From: an uncultured Candidatus Saccharibacteria bacterium
Lineage (GTDB): Bacteria > Patescibacteriota > Saccharimonadia > Saccharimonadales > UBA4665
Assembly: GCA_964478195.1 (NCBI GenBank)
Contig: CAYZGW010000002.1
Span: forward strand, 1,109 to 65,108
Direction: 5' to 3'
DNA: 64,000 bases
Shown: piece by piece, positions 4,042 through 59,314 of the stretch
How positions within the stretch are numbered: the stretch's first letter is position 1
How the letters are laid out: each line of letters opens with the position of its first letter
Made by a program: the position numbers and the translations under genes
The notes under the pieces: generated by a model
Seen by the model: the letters and a program-made list of their open reading frames with translations, nothing else
Database searches by the model: none
Told to the model about the DNA's origin: nothing

Positions 4042-4638
4042 GTGGCTAATTTAGGTCCCGCTAATGTCCATGAGACATTAAATGTGTTCCGAAGCCTGAC
4101 AGAAGCGCTGATTGAGGTAGATCCGCTCGCTTCATCTCCGCTTGGTAGGGCTGGCTTGGAGTCGTATTTTCTAGCGCTGCAAGATATGGCCTGTTTGCAC
4201 GGTGGTGCTCTAGGGCAACGACAGCAGATTATTAGGAACCTCAGTAGTCCAGGCCATATTGAAGTAGGGCGCGCAGCTACGGAACAGACGGTGTCACTCT
4301 ATGCTACTGTTTTGGGCGAAACGGCGATCAGGGCGGCGTCTTTGGCGGTTGGCTTGGAGTATAATCGCTATAACGAGAGTCATCATGAGGGCTTTTATCC
4401 TAAAAGGGTCTCTACAATGCTTTGCTATGGTACGCCCGTGTCTTGGTATGTCTCGCTTAAGAACTGGCGGCCGCCGTTTGACGTATCTGAAACTGGCAGT
4501 GAGGGTCCGGGTATCGGGGCGGCTGCAAGGGCGGATTATGGCAGAAGTCTTGGAATAGTGTTGGGTGTTATCCGGCAATTTAATGCGATACTTACTCCAA
4601 TGGCTGGCGCTATTCATCCGGATCATTCGAGCGAGTAG
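4042..4638 (+). CDS. Hypothetical protein, paralog A of a tandem pair inserted between ruvC and ruvA
   Basis: 198-aa ORF with a GTG start and no SD. TATATT lies 6 nt upstream. It shares blocks with the next ORF (QRQQIIRNLSSPGHIEVGR vs ERQQTVMQGLENPKFVKVDR; YGRSLGIVLGVIRQFNAILTPMAG vs YERLGLGLALVHAVSEGILKPLASG). Confidence 0.6.
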   Translation: MANLGPANVHETLNVFRSLTEALIEVDPLASSPLGRAGLESYFLALQDMACLHGGALGQRQQIIRNLSSPGHIEVGRAATEQTVSLYATVLGETAIRAASLAVGLEYNRYNESHHEGFYPKRVSTMLCYGTPVSWYVSLKNWRPPFDVSETGSEGPGIGAAARADYGRSLGIVLGVIRQFNAILTPMAGAIHPDHSSE

Positions 4639-4699
4639 CTGATACAGATAGATAAAGCTTGCGCTTTGGACTGGCGCTAGGCTGTACTATATTGTATTT

Positions 4700-5302
4700 A
4701 TGGCAGAATCAATCTCATTCGTTCCCGCTACTTTACTGAGCACCTTTCAGAATCAAGCCGAGACTCTTTATAGGGCAGATAGGCTTGCTGTCTACCCGCT
4801 CCGAGGCATAGCGCCGGTACGTTTACGGGCAGCACTGGGGCGTATTGTTGCTCAGCATCTAAAAGGCGATGAAGAGCGGCAGCAAACAGTGATGCAAGGG
4901 CTGGAAAATCCTAAATTTGTCAAAGTGGATAGAACAGAACTTCACGACAGAAGGAACAGTAGTACGCTGCGTGTAGCGCTTCTGGGCGAGATGGCTGCAG
5001 AAGGAGGCTGGTTCGATACAGAAGTTACATATTCAGAATCTAAGAAACCAGGCACAAGGGGTTTACGGTTTTCAGGACTTACTACTTGCATCAATTCCGA
5101 GACCGGCGGAGAGAAGCTTGAAGACGATTGGAGAGCGCTTTACAGGCTTGCACTCGATTGTGGAGGCCTTAACGACCTAGACCCTATACCACTTGATGAT
5201 TCGAGGTACGAAAGGCTGGGGCTGGGTCTCGCGTTGGTTCATGCAGTTAGTGAAGGAATTCTCAAACCTTTAGCTAGCGGGGTGGTGTCCGCAGAACTTT
5301 AG
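4700..5302 (+). CDS. Hypothetical protein, paralog B of the tandem pair
   Basis: 200-aa ORF with an ATG start. TTGGAC-16 nt-TATATT promoter-like motif ends 6 nt before the ATG, with no SD. Paralogous to 4042-4638. Confidence 0.6.
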   Translation: MAESISFVPATLLSTFQNQAETLYRADRLAVYPLRGIAPVRLRAALGRIVAQHLKGDEERQQTVMQGLENPKFVKVDRTELHDRRNSSTLRVALLGEMAAEGGWFDTEVTYSESKKPGTRGLRFSGLTTCINSETGGEKLEDDWRALYRLALDCGGLNDLDPIPLDDSRYERLGLGLALVHAVSEGILKPLASGVVSAEL

Positions 5303-5361: not shown

Positions 5362-5937
5362 ATGATTGCGACACTAAGCGGGGTGGTGAGCGAAAAGCTA
5401 GCCGATATGGTTGTGTTGGATGTGCGTGGCGTAGGCTACGGTTTACAAGTGACCGCTGAGGATTTTGGCCGATTACCCACTAGCGAAGCTGCTAAGCTCT
5501 ATGTGTATGAACATATCCGCGAACAAACCTACGATCTGTTCGGGTTTGTACAGCTGGATACCAAAAAATTGTTTGAACAACTGCTAGGTGTAAAAAATGT
5601 GGGGCCAAAAGTGGCGCTAGCTGTTTTGGATATTGGGACCGCACCTGCAGTGCGTGGTGCAATTGCAGCAGGCGACGTAAAGCTGCTGCAAAGCGCGAAA
5701 GGTGTAGGTAAACGTGCAGCCGAGCAGATTGTGGTGGAGCTGCGTGACAAAGTGGGCCTGAGTGCTAGCGATACTGCCGAAGGCATAGTGTCCCGCCCAG
5801 GCATTAATACGCAAGATGAAGCGGTGGAAGCGCTTATTTCACTGGGCTACACGCCGCAAGATGCGGCGGCGGCACTCAAAGATATTGACGCAGCACTTCC
5901 TAGTGAAGAACGCATAAAATTGGCGCTGAAGCGATGA
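5362..5937 (+). CDS. ruvA: Holliday junction branch migration complex subunit RuvA
   Basis: MIATLSGVV...VVLDVRGVGYGLQV, HhH motifs (LLGVKNVGPKVALAVL, LQSAKGVGKRAAEQIV), C-terminal domain III (ALISLGYTPQDA). Confidence 0.9.
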   Translation: MIATLSGVVSEKLADMVVLDVRGVGYGLQVTAEDFGRLPTSEAAKLYVYEHIREQTYDLFGFVQLDTKKLFEQLLGVKNVGPKVALAVLDIGTAPAVRGAIAAGDVKLLQSAKGVGKRAAEQIVVELRDKVGLSASDTAEGIVSRPGINTQDEAVEALISLGYTPQDAAAALKDIDAALPSEERIKLALKR

Positions 5938-19637: not shown

Positions 19638-19661
19638 TTTTGGGAGGTCTGTCCTCCTAAA
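19638..19661. repeat. REP-like palindrome, left copy
   Basis: TTTTGGGAGG tctgt CCTCCTAAA, a 9-position stem with one G-T pair. Confidence 0.6.
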
Positions 19662-19689
19662 GAATATAAATGTGGCGTAGTATAGAGAT

Positions 19690-20307
19690 ATGCCGCGGAG
19701 GAATGTTATAAAGCAAGATGTAGCCGATAGTTTTCAGCATGTCTATGCCCGGGGTCATAGCCGCCATAGAATCTTTGGTGATGAGCAAGATTACATTACG
19801 TTCCTGACGCTGCTGCAGCGTTATTTATCTGCCGAAGAAGTGCGTGATGCATACGGTGTTCCTTATCCTAATTTCTATAACAAGGTTGAACTACTGACCT
19901 TTGTGCTAATGCCAAATCACTTTCACTTGTTAATTTACCAGCATCAGCCCGGGGCTATGGCACAGCTTATGAAAAGCCTGCTCACAAGCTATAGCCGTTA
20001 CTTTAATAAGAAATATAAGCGTAGTGGCTCGCTGTTTGAATCGCGCTATAAGGCTTCTATGGTCAGCGACGATTCATATCTGGAGCATATTTCCCGGTAT
20101 ATTCACTTGAACCCGCGACAGTGGCGTGAGTATGAGTACTCCAGCCTGCCGTATTATTTGCAACGCGATGAAGTGTCGTGGCTACGCCCAAAACGTATTC
20201 TAAATTTATTTGAGAGCCCAGAGGAATATTTGGAATTTGTTTCGGATTATGTTGAACAAAAGAAGATGATGGACATTCTAAAGCAAGAGTTGGCTAACGA
20301 TTTATAA
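19690..20307 (+). CDS. REP-associated tyrosine transposase (IS200-like Y1 HUH transposase family)
   Basis: HVYARGHSR..., HUH motif LMPNHFHLLI, SGSLFESRYKA, catalytic Tyr region ISRYIHLNPRQ; 205 aa. Confidence 0.8.
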   Translation: MPRRNVIKQDVADSFQHVYARGHSRHRIFGDEQDYITFLTLLQRYLSAEEVRDAYGVPYPNFYNKVELLTFVLMPNHFHLLIYQHQPGAMAQLMKSLLTSYSRYFNKKYKRSGSLFESRYKASMVSDDSYLEHISRYIHLNPRQWREYEYSSLPYYLQRDEVSWLRPKRILNLFESPEEYLEFVSDYVEQKKMMDILKQELANDL

Positions 20308-20318
20308 GTAAGATATCG

Positions 20319-20341
20319 TTTGGGAGGTCTGTCCTCCCAAA
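20319..20341. repeat. REP-like palindrome, right copy
   Basis: TTTGGGAGG tctgt CCTCCCAAA, a perfect 9-bp stem. Confidence 0.6.
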
Positions 20342-20448
20342 ATAGATTGTACGTTGCTTTTGAGGGGCGGGCCGCGTATACCTGTAAATACAATATTATT
20401 TGATGCAGGTAGCAATCTTTAGCTGCCGTAGACGAAAGGACGAAGGAT

Positions 20449-27737: not shown

Positions 27738-28535
27738 ATGAATATTCTCTACATTGGCGATGTGATGGGTGAAATGGGTCTGAAGGCTGTCGAGAACGTA
27801 TTACCAGATCTAAAACACGAACATGGCGTAGATTTTGTTGTAGCCCAGGCCGAAAATCTGAGTCTAGGTAAGGGGGTTTTGCCCGAAGATTTTACTCGTT
27901 TGCAGGCGGCAGGTGTAGATTTCTGTACTGGTGGCAACTGGACGCTGGCTCGCGATGAAATCTATCCTGCGCTTGATGATCCGGATGAGCCAATTATTCG
28001 CCCGGCAAACTATCCGGAAGGTACGCCAGGCCTGCGCTATAAATATGCCGAGACTTCCAAAGGGCAAGTACTATTGATAAGCCTGATGGGGCAGATTGTT
28101 GGCCGTGATGCCGAAAAAGAGGTGGATAATCCACTGCAAGTTATCGACAAGGTTCTGGCCGACGAAGCGCCCGATAAACGGATAGCAACAATCGTAAACT
28201 TCCATGGCGATTTTAGCAGCGAGAAGTTTATCATTGGTTATTATCTGGACGGTCGGGCAAGCATGGTGGTAGGCGATCACTGGCACATACCTACTGCGGA
28301 CGCTGATGTGCTGCCCAAAGGCACGGCCCATATGACGGACGTTGGGATGTGTGGCTCGCTTGATTCATCTTTGGGTGTGCAATTTTCCTCTGTGATTCCA
28401 CGTTGGCGCGACGGCTATCAAACTCGTAACGAGCTGGAAATCGCTGGTCGCATGCAGTTCAATGCACTACTAGTGGACGTTGATGAAACCACTGGCCGCG
28501 CCCGCTCGGCTCAACATATCCGTAAGGTCTGGTAA
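27738..28535 (+). CDS. ymdB: YmdB-like metallophosphoesterase (TIGR00282 family, 2',3'-cyclic-nucleotide phosphodiesterase)
   Basis: MNILYIGDVMGEMG, AQAENLSLGKG, GGNWT, NFHGD and GDHWHIPT are the calcineurin-like metal motifs of YmdB. Confidence 0.85.
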   Translation: MNILYIGDVMGEMGLKAVENVLPDLKHEHGVDFVVAQAENLSLGKGVLPEDFTRLQAAGVDFCTGGNWTLARDEIYPALDDPDEPIIRPANYPEGTPGLRYKYAETSKGQVLLISLMGQIVGRDAEKEVDNPLQVIDKVLADEAPDKRIATIVNFHGDFSSEKFIIGYYLDGRASMVVGDHWHIPTADADVLPKGTAHMTDVGMCGSLDSSLGVQFSSVIPRWRDGYQTRNELEIAGRMQFNALLVDVDETTGRARSAQHIRKVW

Positions 28536-28558
28536 TTCTCATAATTTTACCGTATAAT
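28530..28558 (+). promoter_or_regulatory. Sigma-70-like promoter for the element upstream of tRNA-Pro
   Basis: TGGTAA (28530-28535) - 17 nt - TATAAT (28553-28558). The ymdB TAA stop lies inside the -35. Confidence 0.45.
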
Positions 28559-28564
28559 CACCAC

Positions 28565-28743
28565 TGTTAATTCCCAGGGGTTTGCGGCTACGTATCCCTG
28601 GAAAAGAGCAGCCCGACAAAATGTGAGCCATTTTGTCGGTGCGATAGTTCAAACAAAAGTGAGAACTATAAACTAAGCCGAAAGAAATACCTTTCGTGCA
28701 AGGCTATATGAGAAAAACCGTAGGTTTGTCTCATATCCCTTTT
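28565..28743 (+). ncRNA. Candidate structured ncRNA / tRNA leader element, copy A (unknown family)
   Basis: It has no ORF and forms five hairpins, including an 11-bp perfect stem. It is homologous to a second copy at 34305-34472 (minus strand) that is likewise directly 5' of a tRNA. Confidence 0.45.
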
Positions 28744-28820
28744 CGGGGAGTGGCGCAGTTTGGTAGCGCGCGCGGTTTGGGACCGTGAGGTCGCAGGTTC
28801 AAATCCTGTCTCCCCGACCA
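28744..28820 (+). tRNA. tRNA-Pro (anticodon UGG), CCA encoded
   Basis: Manual cloverleaf: CGGGGAG/CTCCCCG acceptor, GCGC D stem, CGCGG-TTTGGGA-CCGTG anticodon arm, GCAGG-TTCAAAT-CCTGT T arm, A-CCA. Confidence 0.95.
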
Positions 28821-28834
28821 AATAGATCTGTTCG

Positions 28835-28873
28835 CACTGACCGAGAGCTTTGGTTCTCGGTCAGTGTCTTTTT
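28835..28873 (+). terminator. Rho-independent terminator after tRNA-Pro
   Basis: CACTGACCGAGA gctttggt TCTCGGTCAGTG followed by TCTTTTT. Confidence 0.7.
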
Positions 28874-34135: not shown

Positions 34136-34226
34136 TGTAAGGCTCGGGGTTTGTCGCTGGCGAATCCCCTGCATCCCCTAGATACCATATATAAAAAGCC
34201 GAGACTTGTCTTCGGCTTTTTATATA

Positions 34227-34304
34227 TGGGGCGAAAGATGGGACTTGAACCCACGGCCTCCGGAGCCACAATCCAGCGCTCTAACCAACTGAGCTACTTC
34301 CGCC
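34227..34304 (-). tRNA. tRNA-His (anticodon GUG) with encoded G-1 and CCA
   Basis: Reverse complement G-GCGGAAG-TA-GCTC...CTGGA-TTGTGGC-TCCGG...GTGGG-TTCAAGT-CCCAT-CTTTCGC-C-CCA. The extra 5' G pairs with discriminator C. Confidence 0.95.
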
Positions 34305-34472
34305 AAGAAGGCATGAGACAAACCTACGGTTTTTCTCATATAGCTTCGCACGAAAGGTATTTCTTCCGGCTTAGCATACAGTTCTCACTTTCGTTTGAAC
34401 TATTGTGTGGACAAAATGGAATACATTTTGCCTGGGCTGCTCTTTTCCCGGACTGCAAGGGAAATAAAACAG
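34305..34472 (-). ncRNA. Candidate structured ncRNA / tRNA leader element, copy B (homolog of 28565-28743)
   Basis: By hand alignment about 120 of roughly 137 core positions are identical to copy A. The same hairpin series is kept, and it ends a few nt before tRNA-His. Confidence 0.45.
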
Positions 34473-34477
34473 AGGTA

Positions 34478-34506
34478 ATTATACTGGAGAGAGGGAGTTT
34501 TTACAA
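34478..34506 (-). promoter_or_regulatory. Sigma-70-like promoter for element copy B
   Basis: Minus strand TTGTAA (34506-34501) - 17 nt - TATAAT (34483-34478). The upstream gene's TAA stop lies inside the -35, as in copy A. Confidence 0.45.
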
Positions 34507-58621: not shown

Positions 58622-59314
58622 CCTCAGAAGTCTTACATGGAAGCCTTTGCTTTTATCGAATATGCTAGGCTACCGTATCTTAAATCATCAAGTGCCAAAG
58701 CGATTTGTTCTAGACGACGTACCCTATTTTGCGCAATGGGAGTCACGTGAATTGGTGATGTCGATACTGCGCAGGAGCACTAAAGCAGAGGATGACCCAA
58801 ACTGGAAAGCTTCAGGCGCAACCTCGAGGTTAGAATACGCTTCTTGGAGTTGGACTGGTTGCGGGATGGCTTGTCTTAAGATGATCTTAGCTCACCGATA
58901 CGGCAAAGAGTTGCCGCTCGTTACTTTAGGTAAACAATGTGCGGCATATGGTGGATATGATATGCCACTTGAAGAGTCGGTAGGACTCAAATATAAACCG
59001 TTTGCACAGTTCGTTAAAATTGAGTTTGATATACCCACAAAACCAGTGGTGCCGTTAGTTCGATCACGGATAATACATGAATTAGCACAGCAGAAGTATG
59101 TAATAGCTTCGGTAAGCCCCATGATTCGCGATGTGGCCACGAGGCCAACAAGCAAAGGCGGCCATTTGGTGCTTGTAGTAGGGACGACCTAGAAAGGAGA
59201 GAGTTTTATCTACATAACCCTTCGGGCGGATCAGTTTTGGCAGAAGCATATGCAGCTGTATCGTTTAAAGATTTTCGGAAATTCTTTGCTGGTCGGGGGA
59301 TCGTCCTGGGCTAA
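58605..59314 (+). pseudogene. Peptidase C39-like (C39_2/BtrH-like) gene interrupted by a 1-nt frameshift at a G-run
   Basis: Frame 1 ends ...KGGHLVLVVGTT* at 59192. A shift at GGG 59181-59183 continues as DDLERREFYLHNPSGGSVLAEAYAAVSFKDFRKFFAGRGIVLG* (stop at 59312-59314). The catalytic-Cys region WTGCGMACLKMIL is present. Confidence 0.55.

Follow-up and report, generated by a model that had tools for sequence, protein, structure and literature searches.

What lies between the promoter and the mature 5' end of tRNA-Pro(UGG) and of tRNA-His in an uncultured Candidatus Saccharibacteria bacterium? In the 64,000-nt stretch of contig CAYZGW010000002.1 that was analysed (the window), the -10 box of the five other tRNAs lies only about 15-20 nt upstream of the mature 5' end, and the long leaders of these two tRNAs are therefore exceptional. 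Each of them holds one copy of a structured element, copy A before tRNA-Pro(UGG) and copy B before tRNA-His. A preliminary description of the locus had proposed a tRNA-linked family of about 175 nt, released as a small RNA (sRNA) or leader. We found that both copies almost certainly belong to a family dispersed in Saccharibacteria, with a conserved unit of about 78 nt. We favor the reading that the element is an insertion-derived, sense-transcribed and retained cis RNA module and not a free-standing sRNA gene, with a probability of roughly 0.55. The chance that it has a host-level function as a cis RNA is about even.

Identification of the element family

BLAST aligned copies A and B with 87.05% identity over 139 nt (28597-28734 against 34451-34313, about 121 of the 139 positions), in agreement with an earlier hand count and with the reported second copy before tRNA-His on the minus strand. 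The homology starts at GGAAAAGAG and stops at GTCTCAT, which are exactly the boundaries of the family. The parts of the two copies, as given by the minimum free energy (MFE) fold and a covariance model, are the following.

28597..28736, plus strand: copy A, a composite element; the stretch homologous to copy B, whose ends are the family 5' (GGAAAAGAGCAGCC) and 3' (GTCTCAT) boundaries
28600..28613, plus strand: 5' motif GGAAAAGAGCAGCC, single-stranded and purine-rich, invariant in the family alignment and present in all family members
28613..28639, plus strand: P2 hairpin of subtype 'a' (CAAAATG / CATTTTG apex), from the MFE fold and the covariance model
28644..28705, plus strand: P3 and P4, a lineage-specific addition between P2 and P5
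28706..28736, plus strand: P5 hairpin, core UGAGAAAAACC GUA GGUUUGUCUCA containing an A.G mismatch; in sequence, the best-conserved part of the family
34311..34451, minus strand: copy B, a composite element, from BLAST, fold and covariance model
34449-34435, 34432-34409, 34403-34378, 34370-34348 and 34339-34313, minus strand: 5' motif, P2, P3, P4 and P5 of copy B

One genome per GTDB species was scanned with the promoter-start motif followed by RAGCAGCC. Of the 23 loci obtained, 20 were from Saccharibacteria, and in each of these a tRNA (His, Pro-UGG, Pro-CGG, Met, Gln or Arg-CCT) follows closely; the remaining three were dismissed as chance matches without a covariance-model match. A second scan, of metagenomes, required no more than the 5' motif and the 5' strand of P5 (a 22-nt exact pattern) and returned at least 126 matches in at least 120 loci. 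Of the matches listed, only about one third precede a tRNA; the others are found at junctions of ribosomal-protein genes, within 23S rRNA, ahead of 5S, between two tRNAs or in front of other genes. A hidden Markov model (HMM) search found at least 163 distinct copies on Saccharibacteria contigs.

The consensus unit of about 78 nt consists of AGGGAAAAGAGCAGCC, P2, the linker GCGCGA and P5, which reads UGAGAAAAACC-GNA-GGUUUGUCUCA. The information content vanishes directly outside the 5' boundary AGGGA and the 3' boundary GTCTCAT, which marks the module off as a discrete unit. Hence the proposed family of about 175 nt tied to tRNAs had to be given up: what is conserved is the 5' motif, P2 and P5, and this unit also occurs in 23S, in rRNA spacers and at ribosomal-protein junctions. 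A few P2 subtypes (a-d) recur at unrelated loci, and a near-identical P2 apex, CAAAATGTATTCCATTT, was present at 10 unrelated loci.

The earlier statement that the element matches no known family stands. With Rfam 15, only tRNAs matched in the window at gathering thresholds, and nothing meaningful matched within copy A or B at E ≤ 10; nor did 20 loci with canonical copies give any Rfam family for the element. A full-text literature search, literal sequence strings included, returned no description of it. The element is apparently undescribed, within the known class of dispersed structured repeats. Viral contigs gave 0 matches, and a phage origin was set aside.

Secondary structure and covariation

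The MFE fold of copy A recovered the hairpins P1 to P5 at the positions first described. Its energy was -69.2 kcal/mol, compared with -37.3 ± 4.1 for shuffled sequences (z = -7.85), and 0 of 200 shuffles were as stable. For copy B the z value was -5.13, again with 0 of 200 shuffles as stable.

A covariance model built from 30 copies gave 123 matches in 100 loci. In the alignment of these matches 97.4% of the cells pair, and double changes were observed in 18 of the 20 pairs (323 cells, with at most 75 cells in slid controls; 0 of 500 shuffles reached the observed values). The covariation score was 0.347, with at most 0.056 for slid controls and 0.095 for shuffles, in an alignment that is fitted to the model and in which much of the P2 variation lies between the few subtypes. 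Compensatory base-pair changes beyond the controls are what a generic structured cis-acting RNA is expected to display, and the structured element first described proved to be real, conserved and covarying. In P2 an A.C mismatch is conserved, and the outer pair alternates among C-G, G-C and A-U. The sequence of P5 hardly varies apart from occasional compensatory changes, and this hairpin contains an internal A.G mismatch. G.U pairs are more numerous than A.C pairs (29 and 14), which hints weakly at folding of the sense strand.

An optional mini-hairpin of the GCGAAGC type follows P5 in 13 of 139 copies (about 10%; e.g. L044, L065, L066, L075 and L145) and in 0 controls; the GCGAAGC heptamer is known to form an unusually stable mini-hairpin as DNA. 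Another subset of copies has an upstream arm complementary to GAGCAG.

Genomic context and orientation

Context was analysed at the 163 distinct sites of the HMM search. The downstream neighbor is on the same strand at 112 sites (66 tRNA and 46 coding sequences, CDS) and on the opposite strand at 21, so that about 85% of the copies are in sense orientation. By neighbor configuration, 75 sites were same-same, 25 opposite-same, 15 opposite-opposite and 4 same-opposite. The downstream tRNAs comprise 20 anticodon types, and 61 of the 66 begin 2-16 nt past the end of the model. Placement is thus strand-specific relative to transcription, as for cis-acting RNAs in general. In the antisense cases local GC skew, which is a rough proxy for the replication strand, tracks the genes and not the element (9 of 12 negative; 37 to 24 in the sense class), and a replication-strand account of the orientation was dropped as unsupported by it.

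By Rfam annotation, sense copies are located within 23S, shortly before it and in the spacer that separates it from 5S; those inside the large-subunit rRNA are at loci L035, L055, L069, L094, L099 and L110. Among 36 downstream proteins, Pfam identified L2 four times, L4 and S3 twice each, and L14, S10, S13, S17, L23 and EF-Ts. The same set contains RNase III, SSB, R3H/Jag and ATP synthase gamma, each twice, as well as MnmA and ArgRS. These tRNA, rRNA and downstream-protein contexts indicate that the family is concentrated on translation-apparatus genes. Nineteen copies overlap a long open reading frame (ORF); nearly all of these overlaps are with spurious ORFs in rRNA or on the opposite strand, and no in-frame insertion inside a long gene was seen among the 19.

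At tight CDS-CDS junctions the frame AGG GAA AAG AGC AGC is open in 15 of 21 cases, compared with about half of the copies elsewhere. The open frame forms a mini-ORF of 32-39 aa, M..REKSS.S.RI[YH]....RDEKNR..CL.., which starts and ends on TAATG or ATGA overlaps, and therefore translational coupling is preserved. Junctions of this kind were found at L038, L044, L046, L057, L058, L073, L095, L112, L115, L118, L122 and L146. Gene callers likely annotate these mini-ORFs as hypothetical proteins.

Several other arrangements were noted at these loci. One antisense copy lies between tRNA-Ile(GAU) and tRNA-Ala(UGC) at L080 (7538-7616) and at L101 (9214-9291), where it sits in the 16S-23S spacer; the two are an orthologous exception to the sense bias. 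At L055, a Saccharibacteria-type 23S gene that bears the element also has a group I intron (1796-2054; RF00028, 63 bits). The tRNA-Pro(GGG) gene appears to be interrupted directly past the anticodon region by about 200 nt (GGCTGGG|TGAGGWCTGCCAGTGGC...) at L034 (about 5400-5840, CP064992.1) and L062 (about 4480-4750). ARAGORN reported it as 'tRNA-???' in one contig and found the tRNA 204 nt downstream in the other. The interruption looks like an intron, and in L034, which the Rfam scan covered, it matched no family at the gathering threshold. L034 also has a local duplication.

Signs of insertion and constraint

Exact flanking direct repeats of at least 11 nt, up to 44 nt, were detected at 15 of 155 copies and at 1 of 155 mismatched controls. 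The repeats are offset 3-22 nt from the core and duplicate gene ends or starts: a trmD-like end (L145), a site at L053, recX (L023), the msrA start (L066) and the L3-L4 junction (L073, L095). Both neighboring genes are intact at the duplicated sites. No terminal inverted repeats were found (the best ungapped match of the 5' end to the reverse complement of the 3' end was 9/25), and no conserved target sequence, the information content outside the unit being zero. Donor flanks carried along were not observed either, as near-flank sharing between copies occurs only at orthologous sites. The flanking duplications, the variable presence of the element in the orthologous Pro and His leaders of close relatives, and the subtypes shared by unrelated loci together show that the unit has been copied to new sites. 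The family very probably spreads by insertion or duplication.

Seven junctions carry the element on at least two diverged contigs, namely those before L4, L2, S3, rnc, ssb, jag and atpG. There the proteins encoded next to the element share 57-92% identity, and third codon positions at conserved residues only 37-58%. Elements at the same junction share 80-96% identity over their whole length, and 67-92% once the 22 positions forced by the search pattern are set aside. Because same-junction copies outlast synonymous sites, and the mini-ORF is open at tight junctions, we argue for selection at the RNA or translation level.

By its YmdB homologs, the window belongs to Saccharimonadia. The leaders of close relatives were compared at syntenic loci with the same tRNA-Pro(UGG) and tRNA-His genes, from genomes with 75-91% YmdB identity. 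Their Pro and His leaders range from about 15 to about 190 nt, and TATAAT plus [C/T]ACCNCTGTT is retained throughout. Some have no more of the element than GGAAAAGAGCAGCC with P2 and/or a P5-like hairpin; P3-P4 was seen in none of them, and in L005 and L010 the element is missing at both tRNAs. Elsewhere in the family, at L029 (3445-3560, minus strand), the element is followed by a duplicated 18-nt 5' fragment of tRNA-His, an inverted D-arm fragment and then the intact tRNA-His, which is a local rearrangement beside the element.

The two leaders in the window

Besides the parts given above, the two loci contain the following features.

27738-28535, plus strand: ymdB, an ORF call with a YmdB Pfam match; its stop codon lies inside TGGTAA
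28530..28558, plus strand: tRNA-Pro(UGG) promoter, with -35 TGGTAA at 28530-28535, a 17-nt spacer and -10 TATAAT at 28553-28558
28559-28568, plus strand: conserved start region CACCACTGTT, just 3' of the copy A -10
28571..28603, plus strand: P1 hairpin TTCCCAGGG...CCCTGGAA of the MFE fold, local flank outside the conserved unit
28744..28820, plus strand: tRNA-Pro(UGG)
34478..34506, minus strand: tRNA-His promoter (TTGTAA, 17 nt, TATAAT) followed by TACCTCTGTT, from the promoter scan (10/12 matches)
34227..34304, minus strand: tRNA-His(GUG) with a genome-encoded G-1 (34304)

The promoter coordinates, the ymdB stop within the -35, the 17-nt spacer and the start of tRNA-Pro at 28744 all match the sequence as first described. 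The copy A promoter had been called near-consensus. Its TATAAT box is perfect, but its -35 TGGTAA is weak (3 of 6 positions compared with TTGACA), and the consensus promoter scan of the window, which listed the copy B promoter, did not list it. The -10 and the spacing of the Pro promoter are kept in the orthologous loci L001, L003 and L006; the arrangement was seen in L001, L003, L006 and L005, with the element present or absent. The tRNA-His promoter is conserved in L003, L005, L006 and L010.

Strong terminator-like hairpins directly follow tRNA-Pro(UGG) (28834-28867) and tRNA-His (about 34186-34228), and each leader with its tRNA therefore looks like a self-contained monocistronic unit. A 7-nt single-stranded linker separates P5 of copy A from tRNA-Pro(UGG).

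The 3' strand of P1 overlaps the start of the 5' motif. As the information content upstream of AGGGA is about zero across 116 copies, P1 was counted as flank: it is mostly local sequence paired with the start of the motif and is not part of the conserved unit. In a subset of family copies the upstream complements TTCCC and CTGCT are enriched.

The covariance model matched copy A twice, at 28596-28650 as a unit without P5 (20.5 bits) and at 28656-28736 as a full unit with a degenerate 5' part (39.4 bits), and copy B likewise. The window copies are thus composite: 5' motif and P2, then the extra segment P3 and P4, then P5. P3-P4 is possibly a degenerate second half-unit of 5' motif plus hairpin, which would make a tandem '1.5-mer'. 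It was present only in the two window copies and absent from all other copies seen. In our reading, the composite form then passed between the Pro and His leaders as one piece. Partial tandem forms similar to it occur at L006, L026, L030 and L032. BLAST and the covariance model gave no further convincing copies within the window; a candidate third copy at 58898-58967 (E = 0.13) was dismissed, having no recognizable element motifs.

Comparison with known repeats and spacer RNAs

By description, the element resembles the Rickettsia palindromic elements (RPEs). RPEs are about 100-150 nt long, lack terminal inverted repeats, occur in RNA genes and near or in protein genes, and are ORF-compatible. 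Like them, the element is a small hairpin repeat dispersed in a reduced genome, without terminal inverted repeats, found also in RNA genes (with copies inside 23S rRNA) and compatible with ORFs through one open frame. RPEs typically lie in frame inside protein genes, whereas such insertions look negligible here; the open frame is a bridging mini-ORF between genes, and the strongest link is to tRNA 5' ends.

The repetitive extragenic palindromes with their associated transposases (REP/REPIN-RAYT) and the palindrome elements of IS200/IS605 are also short, extragenic, co-transcribed hairpin repeats without terminal inverted repeats. In contrast to these, the element is about 78 nt long with two unlike hairpins and a single-stranded motif, lacks a conserved flanking tetranucleotide, and does not have a 20-40 nt imperfect palindrome as its unit. 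Y1 transposition makes no target duplications. The element shows long duplications instead of a conserved 4-5 nt target without duplication, and its orientation was not tied to the replication strand when judged from local GC skew as a rough proxy.

The window does contain an IS200-like Y1 transposase gene (PF01797; 19690-20307, plus strand, within 19641-20343) with the hairpin GGGAGGTCTGTCCTCC on both sides. The gene's position between the T2SSE ATPase gene and recA is kept in five relatives, and the arrangement suggests a domesticated RAYT-like unit. GGGAGGTCTGTCCTCC is unrelated to the element, and the element was not found flanking a RAYT gene.

Miniature inverted-repeat transposable elements (MITEs) have terminal inverted repeats and a short target duplication of fixed length. 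Neither was found here, the ends matching at 9/25 and the duplications occurring at about 10% of copies with lengths of 11 to 44 nt. The Correia (Neisseria), ERIC (enterobacteria) and BOX/RUP (pneumococcus) repeats are likewise dispersed, co-transcribed and able to fold as RNA. They are about 100-150 nt long and can alter the processing or stability of neighboring transcripts. Correia and RUP are bounded by terminal inverted repeats and generate a short target duplication of fixed length; the element has neither, and it differs from the whole group in its concentration on translation-apparatus genes.

Two RNA classes were also compared. Several copies are insertions in variable helices of 23S, as are the 23S intervening sequences (IVSs) and the short non-intron rRNA insertions that have been reported as uncharacterized in Saccharibacteria (PMC11270868), although the element is found in tRNA leaders and mRNAs as well. 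Copies A and B would be by-products of tRNA maturation, as are the spacer RNAs of tRNA precursors such as E. coli 3'ETS-leuZ; in contrast to the latter, the conserved unit is not tied to tRNAs and no target complementarity was found.

Assessment of alternative explanations

The serious rival to a retained cis RNA module is a purely selfish or neutral small mobile DNA similar to REP, MITE or RPE, which inserts where it is tolerated (leaders removed by RNase P, variable loops of rRNA, gene junctions), has no host function and uses its hairpins only for mobilization or harmlessness. The discrete unit, the subfamilies common to unrelated loci, the target duplications around some copies, the tandem partial duplications in L006, L026, L030 and the window, the antisense copies, and the presence/absence and decay among close relatives of the window all fit this explanation. 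It accounts less well for same-junction copies kept past near-saturation of synonymous sites, often with the same P2 subtype, and for a sense bias of about 85% that tracks genes and not GC skew; moreover, terminal inverted repeats, a fixed target duplication and a conserved target sequence are lacking, and no partner enzyme was found. We consider it possible, and tentatively prefer the cis module. A processing cassette comparable to a 23S IVS, which RNase III or another structure-specific endonuclease would excise from rRNA and which would split polycistronic precursors, is rather unlikely. In its favor are the copies within variable regions of 23S, ahead of 23S and in the spacer between 23S and 5S, and those directly before the RNase III gene on two diverged contigs. 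The stems are, however, only about 11-12 bp with mismatches, below typical RNase III substrates, which are longer. In addition, the coupling-preserving mini-ORF kept open at operon junctions implies that mRNA is translated through the intact element. Also on the side of a cassette is a published survey in which 64 of 66 Saccharibacteria rRNA insertions were short and not introns, with many of the short ones at known RNase III IVS sites (PMC11270868).

That the leader of about 175 nt is a dedicated tRNA-linked sRNA, released by RNase P and acting in trans, was suggested by its own promoter, its very stable fold, its direct abutment to the tRNA and the second copy at tRNA-His. E. coli provides a precedent, since spacer-derived tRNA fragments such as 3'ETS-leuZ can act as sRNA sponges. 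Yet the 175-nt form exists in the window genome only, the nearest relatives have leaders of 15-140 nt at the same tRNAs, and the conserved unit also lies inside mRNAs and 23S rRNA, from which RNase P would not free it. A search of the sequences examined for a conserved complementary target found none. A promoter and terminator of its own at most copies were not observed; most copies lie within operons or 2-16 nt before a tRNA without their own terminator, and the window copies use the tRNA promoter. We judge such an sRNA unlikely as the main identity of the element, and the odds for it are low. A small protein-coding gene of about 32-39 aa is very improbable: the frame is open at tight junctions and overlaps its neighbors through TAATG or ATGA, but it contains stop codons in about half of all copies, the P2 length (31-34 nt) lacks 3-nt periodicity, the middle of the peptide varies along with the stem covariation, the element is also in tRNA leaders and rRNA, and the peptide has no Pfam match. 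A riboswitch or attenuator controlling tRNA transcription is hardly tenable. A long structured leader between promoter and tRNA, with CCCTTTT after P5 of copy A, might invite this explanation, but neither the family consensus nor copy B has a U-run after P5, the unit also lies inside rRNA and between coupled cistrons, and neither a conserved alternative pairing nor an Rfam match was found.

Three further candidates were tried. The 5' motif has a complement reminiscent of boxA; the 16S leader of L068, however, lacks the boxA-like TGCTCTTTRA, and that pattern is almost absent from 154 loci. For trans pairing, no 5'-motif complement with up to two mismatches was found outside the elements, 16S, 23S and 5S included. 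Mimicry of rRNA was set aside as well: compared with core rRNA, the consensus showed no similarity of note.

Several points also weigh against the cis RNA module itself. Its transcription, processing and stability are deduced from sequence, and no trans-acting factor or insertion enzyme was identified. With G.U pairs at only 29 to 14 relative to A.C pairs, a role as an RNA strand is not proven over one as single-stranded DNA. About 12-15 copies are antisense to their neighbors. In the clade of the window the element appears dispensable because of decay and loss there: the Pro leader of L003 and both leaders of L005 lack it, and P5 is degenerate in the His leader of L003. Gene conversion among copies could mimic purifying selection, and ascertainment bias may lie behind the apparent constraint; the 22-nt exact pattern of the metagenome sample inflates the apparent conservation and misses decayed copies.

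Proposed mechanism and significance

According to the cis-module model, the promoter of the tRNA itself would drive transcription of each window copy, which would make up most of a 5' leader of about 180 nt and fold independently of the tRNA. A single-stranded linker of 7-9 nt would be left for RNase P, and the element would be cut off with the pre-tRNA leader; such a release of copies A and B is a reasonable expectation. The invariant 5' motif and P5 may form a docking site for a conserved host factor acting on precursor transcripts, with candidate roles in processing, stability or coordinated control. More speculatively, the element could be a common cis-element of Saccharibacteria translation transcripts (tRNA leaders, rRNA and ribosomal-protein operons, rnc, tsf, ssb and jag), with one factor coordinating the set through the 5' motif and P5. 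It would have spread by an unusual route without terminal repeats that leaves long variable duplications, and it may explain part of the short rRNA insertions of this phylum. This wider proposal is tentative, and we would not rely on it.

The genomes of Saccharibacteria and of other candidate phyla radiation (CPR) bacteria are tiny and their spacers very short, and a conserved insert of about 80 nt at tRNAs, rRNAs and ribosomal-protein operons is unexpected there. The element accounts for long tRNA leaders and for some short rRNA insertions. It yields spurious small ORFs in annotations, and it can break assemblies and mislead synteny and primer design. Its covariance model (R1) could seed an Rfam family. 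If the element is selfish, it would be mobile DNA that is unusual both in the targets it prefers and in the footprints its insertion leaves. If functional, it would point to RNA processing or coordination of the translation machinery at a level specific to this lineage, in bacteria about whose RNA biology almost nothing is known.

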